The notes: generated from the sequence alone by a model not told the origin. DNA of 64,000 bases from Pseudomonadota bacterium (GCA_040388195.1 JAZKCF010000106.1:444-64443), one strand, 5' to 3'. Counted from the stretch's first letter, positions 41,499-61,460 are shown. Numbers and translations: made by a program.

Positions 41499-42749
41499 AT
41501 GCCCCTTTTTAGTATTGTTTTTCTCGCCGCCCTGACTTTCACTACCGTGTTCCGCGCCTGGCTCGCCTGGCGGCAAATACGCTTTGTCTCGGCGTCGATT
41601 AATGAAGTGCCTCCATCCTTCATCGAAAAAATCACGCCCGAAGCGCATCGGCGCGCTGGAGATTACACTATTGCGAAGACCCGCCTAGCACTTTTGGAAC
41701 TTGCCGTAGATGCTTTACTCACCTTGGCTTTCACTTTAGGTGGCGGTCTCGAGTGGATTGATCAAATGATTCGCGGCATGGGTTTCGGTTGGGCAGGCGA
41801 AGGAATCGGACTGATCATCGCGGTAACGATTATTTCCAGCCTGGTAGGAATGCCATTTTCGCTTTATCGTACCTTTGTGATCGAAGTGCGGTTTGGATTT
41901 AATCGGATGACGGTTGGGCTTTTCATCGCAGATCTTGTCAAACAAACACTGCTAGGTGCAGCAATTGGCTTGCCGGTACTTTTCGTCATGTTATGGATGA
42001 TGCGCGCGCTAGGGGCCAACTGGTGGATTTATGCTTGGCTGTTCTACGTCGCATTTAGCGTCGTCATGATGATCGTTTTCCCTACGTGGATCGCGCCTCT
42101 ATTCAATAAGTTTTCTCCGCTTACCAATGAGGCACTGAAAAGCCGGATCGAGAATCTGCTTTCTCGTTGCGGCTTCAAATCACAAGGGTTATTCGTGATG
42201 GACGGCTCGAAGCGTTCCAGTCATGGCAACGCCTACTTCACCGGCTTCGGCAAATCAAAGCGTATCGTGTTCTTCGATACACTGATCGAGCGTTTACAGC
42301 CCACAGAAATCGAAGCCGTATTGGCCCACGAACTAGGGCACTTCAAGCGCCATCATGTCGTGAAACGCATTGCACTGACTTTTGTAATTTCGTTTATCTT
42401 CCTCGCGTTACTCGGATGGCTCATCAATGAACTGTGGTTCTTCAACGGCTTGGGCGTAGCAACACCGAGTAACGGTATGGCGCTAATTTTATTCTTCACC
42501 GCCCTGCCCACATTCACCTTTTTCCTGCAGCCGATTAGCAGTCTGTATTCGCGGAAGCACGAATTTGAAGCCGATGAATACGCCGCCTCGCAAACGCGCA
42601 GCACGGATTTGATTAACGCATTGGTAAAGCTTTATCAGGATAATGCCTCTACGCTAACGCCCGATCCGCTTTATTCTGCCATTTATGATTCTCATCCACC
42701 CGCAGCTATTCGGATTGCTCATCTGCGACAACTATCAGGTGCTGTATGA
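41499..42749 (+). CDS. Ste24-like M48 zinc endopeptidase
   Basis: DGSKRSSHGNAYFTG, HELGH, EFEAD, SHPP. Confidence 0.92.
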   Translation: MPLFSIVFLAALTFTTVFRAWLAWRQIRFVSASINEVPPSFIEKITPEAHRRAGDYTIAKTRLALLELAVDALLTLAFTLGGGLEWIDQMIRGMGFGWAGEGIGLIIAVTIISSLVGMPFSLYRTFVIEVRFGFNRMTVGLFIADLVKQTLLGAAIGLPVLFVMLWMMRALGANWWIYAWLFYVAFSVVMMIVFPTWIAPLFNKFSPLTNEALKSRIENLLSRCGFKSQGLFVMDGSKRSSHGNAYFTGFGKSKRIVFFDTLIERLQPTEIEAVLAHELGHFKRHHVVKRIALTFVISFIFLALLGWLINELWFFNGLGVATPSNGMALILFFTALPTFTFFLQPISSLYSRKHEFEADEYAASQTRSTDLINALVKLYQDNASTLTPDPLYSAIYDSHPPAAIRIAHLRQLSGAV

Positions 42750-55367: not shown

Positions 55368-57485
55368 ATGACCCGCAAAATCCTCGTTACCAGTGCACTC
55401 CCTTACGCAAACGGCGCTATCCATCTCGGCCATTTGGTTGAATATATTCAAACTGATATTTGGGTCCGCTTTCAGCGAATGCAAGGACATGAAGTGCATT
55501 ACGTCGGCGCCGACGATACGCATGGAACGCCAGTCATGCTGCGTGCAGAGAAAGAAGGTATCGCCCCGCGCGACCTTATCGCACGCGTAAAAACAGAACA
55601 CGAACGCGATTTTTTCGGTGGCGAACAAATAAAAGCGAAAGGTGAATTCGGTGGGTTCTACATCGGTTTCGATCATTACTACACGACCGATTCAACGGAA
55701 AATCGCGAGTACTGCGAACAAATTTACGGCACACTGGAAAAAAACGACCTGATCGCCAAGCGGTCGGTTGAGCAATTTTACGATCCGATCAAAGAAATGT
55801 TTTTGCCCGATCGCTTCATTAAAGGCGAATGTCCAAAGTGCGGCGCAAAAGACCAATACGGCGACTCCTGCGAAGTATGCGGCGCAACTTATGCACCGAC
55901 GGATCTTAAAAATCCCTACTCAGTCGTCTCCGGTGCAAAACCGGTTCGGAAATCGTCTGAGCACTACTTCTTTAAACTTTCCGATAAGCGCTGCCGCGAT
56001 TTTCTCCGCCGCTGGACACGGGAAGAAGGCCGGCTCCAATCCGAAGCGTCTAATAAGATGCAAGAGTGGCTGGGCGAAGTAGGCGAGGAAAAACTTTCTG
56101 ACTGGGACATTTCCAGAGATGCGCCTTACTTTGGTTTTCCGATTCCGGGTACGGATAACAAAAAGTTTTTTTATGTATGGTTAGACGCACCGGTTGGCTA
56201 CTTCGCCAGCTTCAAGAATTACTGCGAGCAACAGAAAATCAAAGGTATCGAAATCAACATCGATGCTTTCCTAAATCCCGGAAAAGCAGCCAAGGCGAAG
56301 ACCGAATTTGTACATTTCATCGGCAAAGACATTCTTTACTTTCACGCCCTCTTTTGGCCAGCGATGCTTGAGCATTCCGGCTACCGCACGCCGACCAGCA
56401 TCTACGCGCATGGTTTCTTGACGGTCAATGGCGAGAAAATGTCTAAATCCCGCGGCACCTTTATCACTGCGGAAAGCTATCTCACATTAGGTTTGAATCC
56501 GGAATGGTTACGTTATTACTATGCAGCCAAGCTAAATGGCACGATGGAAGACATTGACCTCAATTTGGATGATTTCGTTGCGCGAGTGAACAGCGATTTG
56601 GTCGGGAAGTACGTCAACATTGCCAGCCGTTGTGCTGGATTTCTTACCAAAAAATTCAACGGACAAATTGCCGGAGGCGAAGTATTGCCGGTTCTCACCA
56701 AGCTTCAAGGTCACGCCAAACAATTGGCTGCGCTTTACGAAGGTCGCGCATATGGCCAGGCGTTGCGAGAAGTAATGGCGCTAGCCGACGAAGTGAACCA
56801 ATTTGTTGATCAGTCGAAACCCTGGGAACTAGCAAAAGACTCTACGCAAGATCAAGCGTTGCATTGGATTTGTTCACAAGCATTGAACCTATTTCGATTA
56901 CTCACGCTCTATCTCAAACCAGTTCTACCAAAACTGGCACAACAAGTGGAATCGTTTCTCAACATACCGCCACTTACTTGGAAAGACGCCAGTACATTGC
57001 TGCCTGAAGGACATGTAATTGGTGTGTATAAACACTTAATCACTCGTGTCGAACCAAAGCAAATCGAGGCGCTTATAGCCGCTAACACAGATAACCTTTC
57101 AGCATCTTCACCGACCGTGATTCCCGAGGAAAAACCAAAAGTTGATATTGCCCCGATTGCCGAAACCATTAATATCGATGACTTCAGCAAAATAGACTTT
57201 CGCATTGCCCGCATCGTAGCTGCGGAAAATGTCGCAGAAGCCGACAAGCTTTTGAAGTTAACCCTCGACATCGGGATTGAACAGCGGACGGTATTTGCTG
57301 GCATCAAGTCAGCCTACACCCCGGAACAACTCGTAGGTCGGCTTACCATAATGGTTGCGAACTTGGCGCCGCGAAAAATGCGCTTTGGTGAGTCGCAAGG
57401 AATGGTGTTGGCTGCTAGTGATAGCGGTGGGCTGTATATCCTTAGTCCTGACGATGGCGCAAAACCAGGGATGCGCGTTAAATAG
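55368..57485 (+). CDS. metG: Methionine--tRNA ligase with C-terminal tRNA-binding domain
   Basis: ALPYANG..HLGH, CPKC..CEVC, KMSKS, NLAPRKM..SQGM. Confidence 0.97.
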
Positions 57486-57490
57486 CAAAT

Positions 57491-57522
57491 GAGGCCGCAT
57501 TAACATATGCGGCCTCTTTCTT
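57491..57522 (+). terminator. Terminator after metG
   Basis: GAGGCCGCAT-TAACAT-ATGCGGCCTC-TTTCTT. Confidence 0.7.
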
Positions 57523-58019
57523 AATACGAAGTCGAAAGAAATTGGCTGAGCGGTTCACTATAAGCACGTGATAAGGTGCGGCGTTCCGGCCGCCGCCAAC
57601 GCTCAGCTTCCCTCTTCGCGTTAACCACATGCGGGTTAAGCAATATCACACGAATATCGTGCCCCTGAGATAACAATTCATGAAAAGGCACACCCGGCTG
57701 CGCAAAAGACTCGGCACCGGAAACAGTCCAAAGAAATACTTCATTCTTTGCCACCTCTGTCTCCACTGCCTTTCAAATTAAAACCACTTTCACTGACGTC
57801 CAAAATACCGGCATATTTAACGGCGGCGAATTTGCGACGATTACGGCAAGCCAAACGCGCGCCTAGTAGCAACGCCGCGAGGGTTAGTGCCAACAATATT
57901 TGAGTTAATAGCGGTGAAAGCGACAACGCGGATAAATGCGCATCGGAAGAGCGATCAAACGAAGTAACTACATACGGGAGCAAGAACGCAACAGCGACGG
58001 CAACAAAAACAACGGTCAA
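57521..58019 (-). pseudogene. Probable frameshifted membrane-protein pseudogene
   Basis: Two overlapping frames (TM-rich N-part; ...IRVILLNP C-part); in-frame TAG just upstream of the TTG; no clear RBS. Confidence 0.45.
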
Positions 58020-58150
58020 CTAAGGCAGGCAGTGGCGAGAGGACCAGGAGAGCAATTCGATTTTTAATTTTCACAATCACCTGGTCAGCTCGCTCATAAC
58101 TGATGCTTTGTTACGAGCCCTCGCGCCGAGGAATACGACGCCAGAGCTCT

Positions 58151-58210
58151 GAATAAAAAACGCCCGCACTAGGAGAAAAACCGCGGGCGAACGAGGGGTT
58201 CGTCAATTCT
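58151..58210 (-). ncRNA. Sibling sRNA-like module A (CCCCUCGUU + terminator with CUCCU loop)
   Basis: CCCCTCGTTCGCCCGC-GGTTTTTCTCCTAGT-GCGGGCG-TTTTTT. Confidence 0.5.
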
Positions 58211-58224
58211 TACAGTCCTGCCAG

Positions 58225-58254
58225 GAACCTTGGCAAGCAAGCTTGCCAAGGTTC
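58225..58254. repeat. Perfect 14-bp inverted repeat between the sibling modules
   Basis: GAACCTTGGCAAGC-AA-GCTTGCCAAGGTTC. Confidence 0.8.
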
Positions 58255-58255
58255 G

Positions 58256-58316
58256 GAATAAAAAACGCCCGTACTAAGGAGGGTTGCTGACGGGCGAACG
58301 AGGGGCCTTGAGTTCT
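58256..58316 (-). ncRNA. Sibling sRNA-like module B (CCCCUCGUU + terminator with CCUCCUUA loop)
   Basis: CCCCTCGTTCGCCCGT-CAGCAACCCTCCTTAGT-ACGGGCG-TTTTTT. Confidence 0.55.
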
Positions 58317-58385
58317 CATAAGAGCAGAATAAATCTTTAAAAATCGACGTTAAAATGTCGACGTAACTAGTTCGTTTAAACGCGC

Positions 58386-59021
58386 TTATCCGCGCGCTAC
58401 CAATGCACCGTTTTCGATACGTACGCGGTCACCGATTCCAACACCTGGATCACCTGTCTGAGTGATAGTGCGATACGCACCATCTTCCATCCGTACTCGA
58501 ACAACGTATTGCTTATTCTTCTTCACATTCTTTTCAATTTCATTACCTGCAAAGCCGCCGCCTACGGCGCCAGCCACAGTTGCCAAATCGTTACCACGGC
58601 CATTACCCATTTGATGACCTAATATGCCACCAACAACAGCACCGCCGACAACACCTAGACCAGAACCTTGCCCTTTCACTTCACGCACCTGCACTGACTC
58701 AACCACACCGCAACTCGCACACGTCATTGCAATGTGCTGCGGTGCCTGATTCGTCCGTGGCGCTGTGGAATGCTCTCGCGAAACAACATGCGAAGTTTTT
58801 GGCTTCTGTACTACCGCTTGCTTCACCGGCTCTACTTCTTTTATATCTTTGTCAGCTTGAAGCGTTTGCGCGGTTTGTGCATCGACCGTCACTTCACTTT
58901 TTTGCGATGACGCATTAGGCATATGACCAGTCATTGTGGCAATGCCAACAACACTGAACAGAATTACCGAGATGGAAGCAATCACCATCACCGGATACAA
59001 CATTCCATTCCTTTTATCCAT
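58386..59021 (-). CDS. Glycine-zipper 2TM envelope protein (SlyB/Pcp-like)
   Basis: N-terminal TM, CASCGVV, GAVVGGILGHQMG.G.G...ATVAGAVGGGFAGN, VRMEDG; RBS AAGGGG before ATG 59021. Confidence 0.85.
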   Translation of the reverse strand: MDKRNGMLYPVMVIASISVILFSVVGIATMTGHMPNASSQKSEVTVDAQTAQTLQADKDIKEVEPVKQAVVQKPKTSHVVSREHSTAPRTNQAPQHIAMTCASCGVVESVQVREVKGQGSGLGVVGGAVVGGILGHQMGNGRGNDLATVAGAVGGGFAGNEIEKNVKKNKQYVVRVRMEDGAYRTITQTGDPGVGIGDRVRIENGALVARG

Positions 59022-59112
59022 AACTCTTCCCCTTACTTTACTAATCTCTCCGGACTTATCCGAAACGATCACTTACCGTCCCAAACAGTATTAAGCGCCG
59101 CCTAAATACGTT

Positions 59113-59128
59113 AGCAATGGTCGTGCCA
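59113..59128 (-). promoter_or_regulatory. Sigma54 -24/-12 promoter
   Basis: TGGCACGACCATTGCT, consensus match. Confidence 0.88.
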
Positions 59129-59146
59129 GTTTTATTTATTATTTAT

Positions 59147-59159
59147 AATCAAGCAGTTA
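59147..59159 (+). promoter_or_regulatory. IHF site
   Basis: AATCAAGCAGTTA = WATCAANNNNTTR; a second near-match at 59240-59252 on the minus strand. Confidence 0.65.
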
Positions 59160-59201
59160 TAAAAAAATAGACTATTTACGAGAAAAAACGATCGATAAAT
59201 T

Positions 59202-59219
59202 TGTCTCTAATTACCGACA
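59202..59219. promoter_or_regulatory. GlrR-type upstream activator site 1
   Basis: TGTC-TCTAATTACC-GACA (TGTC-N10-GACA). Confidence 0.75.
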
Positions 59220-59268
59220 ATTCGCTGATTACAAGGAATTAACAAGTTGATCACACAAGGGTTTTTTA

Positions 59269-59286
59269 TGTCGCCGAAGGGCGACT
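59269..59286. promoter_or_regulatory. GlrR-type upstream activator site 2
   Basis: TGTC-GCCGAAGGGC-GACT. Confidence 0.65.
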
Positions 59287-59360
59287 AATTTAGAGAGGAC
59301 GCAGACTGGCAGGATGAGCGACGCTTTAAAACCGCTAATCCTGCCTTAATAAAACAAATT

Positions 59361-59517
59361 ATACGAATCCCAATTAAAAACGGAACAATGAAATTGATGG
59401 ATTTTTTTGTCTGGCAAGGCGAGAGAAGGCGTCATAGTGAACTATGGCAACGACGAGCAACGCAGTCAGACAAAAAAAGACCCGATTTCATGTTTCGTTT
59501 TTAATTGGGATTCGTAT
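59361..59517. mobile_element. 157-bp palindromic element with different TIRs but the same core
   Basis: 22-bp perfect TIR ATACGAATCCCAATTAAAAACG; core GCAAGGCG...CATAG-TGAA-CTATG...CAACGCAG. Confidence 0.75.
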
Positions 59518-59522
59518 TAATT

Positions 59523-60866
59523 CTAGGCTTGGGATTTAAACCGTGCCGGTTCTAATTGATGGCGCTGCAAGAGCTTATAAAATTCAGTGCGGTTACGCTT
59601 AGCAAGCTTGGCCGCTTGAGTAACGTTGCCCTCGGTTATTTTCAGGAGTTGTGAAAGATAGTCTCGCTCGAACCGGCGGCGCGCTTCATCAAACGAATCA
59701 AAATCTCGTTGTTCGCGTTGAATAGCGTTTTGCACCAAGGTTGCAGGAATTACCGGCGTTGTGGTTAACGCAACGGTCTGTTCAACCACGTTATATAGCT
59801 GCCGAACGTTTCCAGGCCACGGAGCAGCCACAAGTAATTCCAATGCTTCCGGCGCAAAGGCGTTTACTGGCTTTGCGTATTTGTCACCGACTCGCTTAAG
59901 GAAATAGGAAGCGAGTAACGGTATATCTTCGCGCCGCTCGGCGAGTGAAGGAAGTTTCAGGGAAACCACATTCAACCGGTAAAACAAATCGCCTCGGAAA
60001 GTTCCATTATCCTTGGCAGTCTCCAGATCCCGGTGAGTAGCAGAAATAATACGAACATCCACCGACACCGATTGCGTCGCGCCAACAGGCCGCACATGAC
60101 GGTCTTCTAACACCCGCAGGAGCTTCACCTGCAATGAGAGAGGCATATCGCCAATCTCATCCAGCAACAAGGTTCCTTTATCCGCCGCTTGAAATAAGCC
60201 TTTGTAATCCTTCACCGCGCCGGTAAACGATCCTTTGATATGGCCGAATAGCTCAGATTCCAGCAACTGCTCTGGAATCGCGCCGCAATTCACTGCTATA
60301 AAAGGGTTATCTCTTCGCTTGCTGGCCTTATGAATCGCGCGCGCCAGCAATTCCTTGCCGCTACCGCTTTCACCCGATAGAAACACACTCGCATCCCCAG
60401 CCGCTACCAATTTCGCTTGATTCAGTACGTCTTCTATTAAACGGCTACGGGTAATAATTTCCGAGCGCCATTCGCCGCTTTCTCCCAAGTCAATCGTAGC
60501 CCCGGATAAGCGCAAAGCCGCGTCCACTTGCTCTAGCAACGTTGCGCTTTCATAAGGCTTAGTGAGATAACCAAATACGCCACGCATCGTTGCGGAAACC
60601 GCCTCCGGGATCGTGCCGTGCGCGGTGAGAATGATCACCGGCAATGCGGGATGATCCTTACGCAAGGTATCGAACAACGCGATGCCATCCATACCAGGCA
60701 TCCGTAAATCGGAAATTACCAATTGCGGCATTTCAGCGGCAATGGCGGCCAGCGCGCGCTCACCATTCTCCGTCGTAATGACTTCGTATCCTGCGGATTT
60801 AAGCCGAATGGCAAGAAGACGCAAAAGATCTGGGTCATCATCTACTAATAAAATTTTTGCTTGCAT
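59523..60866 (-). CDS. glrR: Sigma54-dependent response regulator, GlrR/QseF-like
   Basis: REC, GESGSGKE, GSFTGA, LLDEIGD, WPGNVRQL, AAKLAKRNRTEFYKLLQRH HTH. Confidence 0.88.
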   Translation of the reverse strand: MQAKILLVDDDPDLLRLLAIRLKSAGYEVITTENGERALAAIAAEMPQLVISDLRMPGMDGIALFDTLRKDHPALPVIILTAHGTIPEAVSATMRGVFGYLTKPYESATLLEQVDAALRLSGATIDLGESGEWRSEIITRSRLIEDVLNQAKLVAAGDASVFLSGESGSGKELLARAIHKASKRRDNPFIAVNCGAIPEQLLESELFGHIKGSFTGAVKDYKGLFQAADKGTLLLDEIGDMPLSLQVKLLRVLEDRHVRPVGATQSVSVDVRIISATHRDLETAKDNGTFRGDLFYRLNVVSLKLPSLAERREDIPLLASYFLKRVGDKYAKPVNAFAPEALELLVAAPWPGNVRQLYNVVEQTVALTTTPVIPATLVQNAIQREQRDFDSFDEARRRFERDYLSQLLKITEGNVTQAAKLAKRNRTEFYKLLQRHQLEPARFKSQA

Positions 60867-60902
60867 ACGTTTTGCGATTTCTAACTTCACTTTTAGAGTT
60901 GC

Positions 60903-61460
60903 TTATTTAGGTGCAGATTGTTTGCCCCGGCCACGCTCGGACAAACTTTTTTCAATAGATTTGAGTGCTTCAAGTTTCTGCTGCAACTCTGCAGACTGTC
61001 TTTGCTCTTCTTTTAGTTTAGTATTCGATGCCTGCGCTGCCTCATCTAAGCGCTTGTTGTCCGCCACAAAGCCAATTAGCAACCAGACAAAATTACGCAC
61101 GCTAGGCGAGGAGGCTTCCTTGCTAAGCGGCTCTAGCATCGCTAATGCTTTGCTGTCATCCCGCAAGGGAAGACCCGGTAATGCATAAAACATGGCTAGT
61201 TCCGCACGGGTTAAATCTGTCTTTGATTTAGCTACGGCTTGTCTTAAGGATTCGTGCTCGCGAGTCAGCTCGCTTGCACTTAAACGGCGTAAATAGTTGG
61301 CATACTCCAATAGAATGTCCGAATCGGACGCAACATTTGAGGAATCACGCGCCGTTGATTGATGCTTAGGTAATTGCACGGGAGTTTCAACAACTCTATT
61401 AGCAACACAGCCCGCCATACCTAGCAGTACGGCAATAAACAGAGGAAAAAACGATTTCAT
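60903..61460 (-). CDS. QseG/YfhG-like lipoprotein with C-terminal coiled coil
   Basis: Lipobox MAGC; LQQKLEALKSIEKSL tail; lies between kinase and regulator. Confidence 0.75.
   Translation of the reverse strand: MKSFFPLFIAVLLGMAGCVANRVVETPVQLPKHQSTARDSSNVASDSDILLEYANYLRRLSASELTREHESLRQAVAKSKTDLTRAELAMFYALPGLPLRDDSKALAMLEPLSKEASSPSVRNFVWLLIGFVADNKRLDEAAQASNTKLKEEQRQSAELQQKLEALKSIEKSLSERGRGKQSAPK

Follow-up and report, generated by a model that had tools for sequence, protein, structure and literature searches.

What do two hairpins of the same design, arranged one behind the other at the end of a gene, do that an ordinary transcription terminator does not? The question is raised by the minus strand of a 64,000-nucleotide (nt) stretch of DNA from a Pseudomonadota bacterium (the window, meaning the whole stretch that was analysed), in which two modules, here designated A and B, lie between positions 58151 and 58305 in the 3′ region of a gene for a glycine-zipper protein. 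An earlier sequence-only reading had taken them for sibling small RNAs (sRNAs) derived from the 3′ untranslated region (3′UTR) of a gene controlled by GlrR and sigma-54, with loops complementary to the Shine-Dalgarno (SD) sequence (anti-SD), and had compared them with enterobacterial GlmY. From sequence comparison, the modules represent a real conserved RNA element, which is of a known kind and outside Rfam 15. Most likely it is an intrinsic terminator that does more than terminate, its extra features being an enlarged loop displaying CUCCU or CCUCC, the complement of the SD sequence, and, in families f1 and f51, a single-stranded C-rich tract before the stem. We put the chance at slightly better than even that the modules are the seed-plus-terminator cores of sigma-54-dependent, trans-acting, base-pairing sRNAs, some of them derived from 3′UTRs and one of them stand-alone.

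The module and its copies

Both modules and the palindrome between them belong to the minus strand. Module A (58256..58305), the one nearer to the gene, is the first terminator of the glycine-zipper gene, ~80 nt past its stop codon. It consists of a C-rich tract (CCCCTCGTT at 58305..58297), a 7-base-pair (bp) stem (CGCCCGT at 58296..58290 with ACGGGCG at 58272..58266), a 17-nt loop (CAGCAACCCTCCTTAGT, holding CCCTCCTTA), U6 (T6 at 58265..58260) and ATTC, which ends at 58256. Module B (58151..58198) has a 5′ tract, stem and tail as in module A (CCCCTCGTT at 58198..58190; CGCCCGC/GCGGGCG; T6 and ATTC to 58151) and a 15-nt loop, GGTTTTTCTCCTAGT. The frame common to both is CCCCTCGTT, CGCCCG[T/C]...[A/G]CGGGCG with a CTCCT-bearing loop, and then TTTTTTATTC. 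The free energies of the hairpins are −10.6 kcal/mol (A) and −14.8 kcal/mol (B). The exact 15-mer CCCCTCGTTCGCCCG is found twice in the window, against 0.13 occurrences expected at ≤2 mismatches (100 shuffles). In all these points the sequence-only reading was correct to the letter: the CGCCCG stems, the T-A/C-G exchange in the uppermost stem pair, the CTCCT that both loops contain, and CCTCCTTA in the copy that starts at 58305. We take CCTCCTTA to be the 3′ end of 16S rRNA; that end is not assembled in the source genome, where a 13-nt probe had no exact match.

The inverted repeat between the modules (58225..58254) is as perfect as had been claimed, its 14-nt arms (58225-58238 and 58241-58254) being 100% complementary. 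Folded, it has 13 pairs and a loop of 4 nt (−21.2 kcal/mol); it lacks a U-run, and no second copy of it exists in the source genome. TTGGCAAGCTTGCTTGCC inside this palindrome was considered as a sigma-54 promoter for module B and rejected, its GG-N11-GC spacing being one base too long. Module B is followed by a second hairpin (58116..58148, minus strand; −20 kcal/mol), which is stronger than its own and has no U-run. A Logan contig, probably from the source sample, covers the entire stretch with 0 differences, so that the tandem is not specific to a single assembler; it should be noted that this contig represents the same data via another assembler and is not independent.

The source genome (G000; 4.92 Mb in 164 contigs, 92.6% complete, 48.9% G+C) contains exactly three copies of the module, on which a pattern, a loose regular expression and a covariance model agree. 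The search for further copies that had been proposed from the sequence alone thus yielded a third exact copy, C (G000:C71:41975..41925, loop TTTTTTTTCCTCCTTGT), and no others. Neither the 15-nt 5′ part nor CGGGCGTTTTTTATTC varies among copies A, B and C, whereas their loops differ, all with CTCCT. Behind each copy there is a further hairpin, more stable than that of the module (−20 to −25 kcal/mol), and these additional hairpins have neither a U-run nor a common sequence. There is no conserved reading frame through the modules: short open reading frames (ORFs) cross the hairpins in differing frames because the 15- and 17-nt loops shift the frame between copies.

Copy C sits downstream of a PRC-barrel gene, which has a sigma-54-like sequence, TGGCATGCCACTTGCT, ~130 nt before its ATG. 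No TGTC-N10-GACA site (≤1 mismatch), the type recognized by GlrR, is present in the 450 nt upstream of this gene, so that the link of the module is to sigma-54 and not strictly to GlrKR.

A further copy is found in a sister species of the same genus (G001, 86% complete), the only other genome of family f1. This genome has one copy, CCCTCTTCGCCCGTTTTCAATCTCCTTGTGCGGGCGCTTTTTATTC, scoring 47 and 61 bits with the covariance models R1 and R2, respectively. A perfect sigma-54 promoter, TGGCACGTCCATTGCT, begins 92 nt before the model match. Of the genes on either side one is divergent and the other (rsmB) convergent, there is no upstream ORF, and the promoter would therefore serve only a transcript of ~130 nt ending in the module. 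Judged from this arrangement, the G001 copy is a stand-alone small gene, which argues that the module acts as, or within, a small RNA and not only in cis. The region of G000 syntenic to it (the rsmB locus) contains no module. Downstream of glrR, the G001 contig stops 33 nt past the second enhancer site; the best glycine-zipper match in G001 is a 42% paralog. All known contexts of the three G000 copies and of the G001 copy have sigma-54 promoters.

These contexts bear on which strand is used. On the plus strand the loops read AGGAG or AAGGAGG and hold GGA motifs, as would be expected of decoys for CsrA/RsmA. That the plus strand is the functional one is, nevertheless, highly improbable: a U-run is present 3′ of the stem on the minus strand only, the upstream genes and the sigma-54 promoter of G001 are on the CU strand, and a search from 57400 to 59400 gave no sigma-70-like promoter for either strand.

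Some smaller repeats surround the modules. A direct repeat, ACGTCGA-N7-ACGTCGA, lies at window positions 58336-58363 between the stop codon and module A; GTCGAC is also found upstream of copy C (G000:C71 about 42010-42025) and just past the stop codon in the f51 genome G052. GATTTATT is located ~30 nt before both module A and copy C and could be a processing site. The G001 copy is followed by a hairpin, CCCCTCTCCCGC-N4-GCGGGAGAGGGG (L029 1384-1409), which belongs to a palindromic repeat family with dozens of members in G000 (e.g., C13:5498-5527, C129:8448-8473 and C109:25084-25109), often paired ~100-170 nt apart; the family looks like a repetitive extragenic palindromic (REP)-type element of the genus.

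Conservation among relatives

BLASTN of the 201-nt region against 40 relatives returned nothing outside G000, and covariance models were needed. Model R1, applied to 151 genomes, mostly matched anti-hemB terminators (9 of the 14 loci above the cut-off), which were rejected as members; these matches place the order among Burkholderia-type betaproteobacteria. R1 also recovered syntenic homologs in family f51, and model R2, with which module A scores 64 bits (58254-58322) and module B 73.4 bits (58149-58216), found one copy each in five of the nine f51 genomes. Across the 151 genomes, which come from 61 families, confident matches of the module are confined to f1 and f51. A pattern scan of metagenomes gave five loci, the sole real homolog among them (L076) being a sixth f51-type copy, and a pattern scan of the genome collection gave eight loci, seven of them apparently due to chance. 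In a metagenome-assembled genome labelled Gammaproteobacteria, an element at L020 1493-1562 (minus strand) consists of CTCGTTCGCCCGA, a loop with CTCCTTCCCCC, TCGGGCG and TTTTTTATTG; it is flanked by two convergent genes 450 nt apart, follows a TATAAT box at ~75 nt and has no sigma-54 promoter. From its sequence it is a possible distant homolog, which was included in the models and not relied on.

In f51 the copy sits behind the glycine-zipper gene in all six loci, and five of the six have a sigma-54 promoter, the metagenome locus being too short to reach the promoter site. The gene order in this family is kinase, 188-amino-acid ORF, regulator, GTC-N10-GAC sites, sigma-54 promoter, CsbD-like ORF and glycine-zipper gene, with the module (GAACCCCCAAGTTGGCCCGC, a CTCCTCC-bearing loop, GCGGGC and T7-9) 75-100 nt past the last. 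Among 28 glycine-zipper loci checked, the module was present only at the f51 loci of G153, G154 and G052 and a sigma-54 promoter (≤1 mismatch) only at those of G153 and G154. Many of the remaining 25 loci adjoin copper-ATPase-like genes, and their evident terminators have small loops. Glycine-zipper paralogs just upstream of copper-ATPase-like genes (motif DLPI.GMTCAAC) were seen at L083, L085, L086, L088, L089 and L093 and, further, at L094, L096-L098, L103 and L108; the palindromes ATATACCCC-N3-4-GGGGTATAT between the two genes look like operators of the MerR/CueR type.

In the alignment of 11 copies, all stem cells are paired (77/77), as compared with only 32-56% in slid registers. Two of the seven pairs covary, namely the one at the base of the stem (C-G, G-C or G-U) and the one at its top (C-G, U-A, A-U or U-G), with a covariation score of 0.286 versus 0.086 in shuffles, of which 0 of 500 reached 0.286. 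CTCCT is in the loop of 10 of the 11 copies and CCCC in the 5′ tract of nine. Identity between two f51 genera is 0.87 for the module, 0.22 for the remainder of the 3′UTR and 0.39 for the third codon positions in the last 150 nt of the gene; one row had a mis-called ORF, by which the coding figure within the genus and, in part, that between genera are affected. On these comparisons loop and tract are taken to be under purifying selection. As is characteristic of 3′UTR-derived sRNAs, it is the 3′-terminal segment of the UTR that is conserved well above the rest.

A CU-loop hairpin at the same place is found in two other families. In f28 the 3′ flank reads CGCCCG[AG]TT[TC]CCTCCCTTATCGGGCG, then T7-8. 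The pattern occurs in 33 of 37 genomes, 32 with one copy and one with two (one of the 33 genomes is unpublished; without it the count is 32 of 36), and in 11 of the 12 loci examined the element is 58-120 nt past the glycine-zipper gene. The f28 loop is near-invariant, CCTCCC being unchanged in 31 of the 34 matches across the 33 genomes. At one f30 locus the stem is different, whereas the tail is again TTTTTTATTC and the loop, TATCCTCCCCGAG, is a CU loop, and one f2 locus has a CU-rich tract directly 5′ of a small-loop terminator. Judged by sequence and position, the CU-loop hairpins that end the GlrR-linked gene in f51, f28 and f30 are either homologous or analogous. Seed and loop motifs, when looked for in relatives, were thus found to be conserved in f51, and the loop in f28.

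Could the modules, in spite of this conservation, be only terminators or 3′-end stability elements, in which loop and tract aid termination, pausing or protection from exonucleases and from which no RNA acting in trans arises? Their position past the end of a co-oriented gene, their GC stems (7 bp with six or seven G-C pairs) and the T6 that follows are typical of intrinsic terminators; having loops of more than 8 nt, they were skipped by a simple terminator scanner. The same stem core is frequent among terminators of the order, and in f51 and f28 the genes on either side of the element are co-oriented, as with an intercistronic attenuator. Termination, however, does not need loops of 10-17 nt. 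Indeed, loops of ≤8 nt predominate in G000 (133 of 190 terminator-like hairpins, the other 57 having loops of ≥12 nt), and CTCC or CCTC occurs in the loop of only six of the 57, copies A, B and C being three of these six. Nor does termination call for the constancy of CCTCCC in f28 or for the excess of module over 3′UTR identity in f51, and in G001 a perfect sigma-54 promoter drives just the ~130 nt that end in the module. We therefore regard the terminator-only explanation as rather unlikely, and the earlier opinion that the modules are more than plain terminators is borne out by a loop and 5′ tract conserved across genera and families and by the sigma-54-linked stand-alone copy. If the modules were terminators only, the near-invariant loop would still need an explanation.

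The sigma-54 promoter and GlrR-linked genes

The gene upstream of module A (58386..59021, minus strand, ATG at 59021) encodes a glycine-zipper 2TM protein of 211 amino acids (PF05433, E 7.9e-11); the modules form its 3′ region. A perfect sigma-54 promoter (TGGCAC-N5-TTGCW), TGGCACGACCATTGCT at 59113..59128 (minus strand), is located ~90 nt upstream of the ATG, between regulator and glycine-zipper gene, and is the sole match without mismatch in the window. Genome-wide, G000 has 22 perfect sigma-54-like strings and 231 with ≤1 mismatch, from which, by arithmetic from genome size, any one upstream stretch of 300 nt would contain a perfect string with a chance of ~1.4e-4 and one with one mismatch with a chance of ~5e-3. 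Two GlrR-type enhancer sites (59202..59286, minus strand) precede the promoter by ~90 and ~160 nt: TGTCGGTAATTAGAGACA at 59219..59202 and AGTCGCCCTTCGGCGACA at 59286..59269. Both fit TGTCN10GACA, which is given as the GlrR consensus (PMC3045617).

Upstream of these sites, all on the minus strand, are the genes of a two-component system: a sensor histidine kinase (61534..63003; HAMP, HisKA and HATPase_c in Pfam), an ORF of 185 amino acids (60903..61460) and a sigma-54 enhancer-binding response regulator (59523..60890; Pfam). The best NCBIfam match of the regulator is GlrR (NF011695) with 630.9 bits, which is below the cut-off of 763; NtrC is next with 403 bits. The 185-amino-acid ORF occupies the position that QseG has in the enterobacterial operon. 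Its earlier designation as QseG finds a lipobox (LGMAGC) in its favour and is not backed by any family match, so that the label rests on the lipobox. From promoter, enhancer sites and the GlrR-like gene, the glycine-zipper gene is very probably under the control of GlrR and sigma-54, as the sequence-only reading had proposed.

The arrangement recurs in relatives. GlrR orthologs (57-74% identity) were found in 75 of the 151 sampled genomes. At 25 glrR-downstream loci (a locus from an unpublished genome being left out), a sigma-54-like promoter (≤1 mismatch) is present in 21, at least one GTC-N10-GAC site in 22, and the glycine-zipper gene is next after glrR in at least 17, as judged from C-termini; glycine-zipper orthologs adjoin glrR in many families. 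A small lipoprotein with the motif AF[KR]DGY.DGC...GW.DG.D.C often follows the glycine-zipper gene. In f51 the CsbD-like ORF comes first, and in f42 this place is taken by a gene the ending of which we guess from the C-terminus to be BON-like. The gene set was seen at L116-L143, which are glrR-downstream loci in 25 genomes of the order, and at L061 (5132-5350 and 6157-6405). No published account of a GlrR-linked glycine-zipper/lipoprotein regulon was found in the literature search. In G001 the GlrR query gave 117 matches, mostly to receiver domains; the lineage has a very large set of genes for two-component systems and sigma-54 activators.

Looking outside the Enterobacteriaceae, the literature found names as output of GlrKR/QseEF only GlmY (and rpoE in E. 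coli). What is defined here in a betaproteobacterial order is a conserved GlrR-linked promoter and gene set (glycine-zipper gene, often a small lipoprotein, sometimes a CsbD-like ORF) together with a conserved RNA element at the end of the GlrR-linked transcript.

Mode of action and known counterparts

How could the modules give rise to sRNAs? Transcription from the GlrR-activated sigma-54 promoter would pass through the glycine-zipper gene and stop at module A, the hairpin of which is the weaker one, so that partial read-through to module B may be expected. Endonucleolytic cleavage in the AU-rich 3′UTR could then release RNAs of ~60-90 nt. With their C-rich tract, CU loop and U-tail these RNAs might bind Hfq and pair with G-rich ribosome-binding sites, the translation of which would be repressed. 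What the sequences establish is the copy number, conservation and covariation of the modules and their link to sigma-54; termination, processing, Hfq binding, action in trans and targets are inferred. If the modules do act in trans, an envelope-type two-component system would have a post-transcriptional arm, a sigma-54-dependent, 3′UTR-borne family of anti-SD sRNAs new to Rfam 15 would exist, and one module would be met in three states: as 3′UTR, as tandem duplicate and as stand-alone gene.

A wider and more tentative proposal, to which we give clearly less than an even chance, is that the GlrKR (QseEF-type) envelope-signalling system of several betaproteobacterial (Burkholderiales-type) families has a hitherto unrecognized RNA arm of portable sigma-54 riboregulators with the anti-SD seed in the terminator loop. 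The module would end the glycine-zipper mRNA in f1, f51, f28 and f30, and would have been copied in tandem and onto the sigma-54-dependent mRNA of the PRC-barrel gene and been freed as an sRNA gene in the sister species. If this were true, the route from a 3′UTR sRNA to an independent gene could be followed here.

Several results weigh against a function in trans. In three metatranscriptome runs that contained 5-6% of the words, contigs were found only over the coding region of relatives (parts of it, 88-99% identical) and none on the modules. In a target scan of 3999 start regions, for which a crude gene caller and RNAduplex were used, the 7-mer complement of CCCCTCGTT was present in 34 regions, whereas 19 permuted controls gave 25.9 on average (standard deviation 12.1), with at least 34 in three of them; there was neither seed enrichment nor a functional theme, and the best predicted duplexes were merely those with the strongest G-rich SD sites. 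Both the silence of the runs on the modules and the absent target signal favour terminators without further function. Module B has no promoter of its own, its expression being assumed to need read-through or processing. In f31, f41, f17 and f55 the GlrR-linked gene lacks the element, and the next gene abuts. The f28 elements are without the CCCC of the 5′ tract, and CGCCCG-N8-20-CGGGCGTTTT is found in 210 of 401 genomes, mostly in ordinary terminators. Stem core and T-run being this common in the order, a shared stem alone is no proof of homology of the f28 elements. Two exact 9-nt complements were found in the scan, one before a hybrid sensor kinase and one before an ORF without family.

The anti-SD motif could also work in cis. 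In the icaR mRNA the 3′UTR pairs with the mRNA's own ribosome-binding site, and loop or tract of the modules might likewise pair with the ribosome-binding site of their own or the next cistron and tune translation or decay. AGGAGTGGGGAG precedes the ATG of the copy C gene and AAGGGGAAGAG that of the glycine-zipper gene, and the loop of copy C ranks 252 of 3999 against its own start region. Against the start of the glycine-zipper gene, however, the tract of module A ranks only 717 and its loop 1308, the tract of copy C ranks 2564, the G001 copy has no ORF upstream, and the downstream genes in f51 and f28 have no strong SD sites near the module. A cis-acting element is therefore considered improbable.

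Similarly improbable, in our estimate, is a sponge that would titrate Hfq or another protein binding pyrimidine-rich RNA, without any pairing to mRNAs. The loops are U- and C-rich, seed-specific enrichment of targets was not found, and G000 has five Hfq paralogs. The invariant part of the loop, however, is CUCCU or CCUCC, an exact complement of the SD sequence and not a generic U-rich tract. The five Hfq-domain ORFs (C13:32817-33002, C16:11774-11959, C8:108333-108524, C95:27175-27357 and C120:18598-18789), all above the Pfam cut-off, are an unusually large paralog set.

Among known RNAs, GlmY was the first to be compared. No Rfam 15 family reached its gathering score in the window, and the models of GlmY and GlmZ from Enterobacteriaceae (RF00128 and RF00083) gave no match at E ≤10 in 58080-58400 or in G001 L029 1150-1420, in agreement with the opinion that the modules are not homologous to GlmY. 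They share with GlmY/GlmZ the neighbourhood of an operon of the type glrK-(lipoprotein)-glrR and a sigma-54 promoter with TGTC-N10-GACA sites (PMC3045617); here this promoter is perfect by sequence, and the regulator scores below the GlrR cut-off. They differ in that the module forms the 3′ terminus of an mRNA that codes for a protein and lies downstream of glrR, and in that it bears an anti-SD motif, whereas GlmY has a gene of its own, located upstream of glrK, and serves as a decoy for RapZ, a protein. The anti-SD loops of the modules point to a mode of action other than that via RapZ/glmS. Thus the analogy to GlmY applies to promoter and neighbourhood and not to the mode of action, in which anti-SD pairing is nearer to CpxQ, GlnZ or NmsR.

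CpxQ is the 3′UTR-derived sRNA of cpxP. Like it and GlnZ, the proposed core of the module is made up of the last 50-90 nt of an mRNA induced by stress or a two-component system and is better conserved than the rest of the UTR. The modules differ from both in belonging to another sequence family, in having the seed motif in an enlarged terminator loop, and in being found as tandem copies and, in G001, as a free-standing gene with a sigma-54 promoter. With GlnZ, described as derived from the 3′UTR of glnA and driven by NtrC and sigma-54 (PMC9731577; a 2022 bioRxiv preprint), they have in common that the driver would be a sigma-54 enhancer-binding protein. Neisseria NmsR and the tandem siblings NgncR_162/163 (PMC5362039, PMC9973317) and the "double-hairpin" RNAs of Burkholderia (RF02278; PMC5688073) likewise occur in several homologous copies per genome, sometimes in tandem, and their unpaired CU-rich stretches complement ribosome-binding sites, according to the sections of these papers at hand. 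All are from the same broad lineage as the modules. NmsR/NgncR and RF02278 are stand-alone genes for which the same sections do not mention sigma-54, whereas the modules are single hairpins with a sigma-54 link and a position in 3′UTRs. The Rfam model of the RF02278 double-hairpin/toxic small RNAs did not match the modules (window at gathering scores; 58080-58400 at E ≤10; L029 1150-1420).

The modules also resemble anti-hemB (RF02837; Burkholderia RNA 7/ncS04) in having a 7-8-bp GC stem, a U/C-rich loop of ~17 nt and the UUUUUUAU tail, and anti-hemB terminators were weakly picked up by R1 in many relatives. As anti-hemB, however, module B (58153-58239) scores only 13 bits, the cut-off being 49.5, and a true anti-hemB gene is present elsewhere in G000 (C22:49357-49445, 68.4 bits), from which it follows that the modules are a separate family. 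The best weak match in Rfam is to CyaR (RF00112), which similarly has a C-rich anti-SD seed directly 5′ of a GCCCGC...GCGGGC terminator; with 18.4 bits against a cut-off of 47, an E of 0.69 and half of the model covered, this is a resemblance in design only. A search of full-text literature, supplements not included, found neither an sRNA linked to GlrR/QseF or RpoN nor such a glycine-zipper gene in betaproteobacteria. By analogy of design, CpxQ, GlnZ and the CU-rich sRNAs of Neisseria and Burkholderia appear to be closer to the modules than GlmY.

Past module B the window contains two small ORFs on the minus strand (57741-58019 and 57521-57766) of 92 and 81 amino acids; neither has a Pfam match, and the product of the first resembles a membrane protein.

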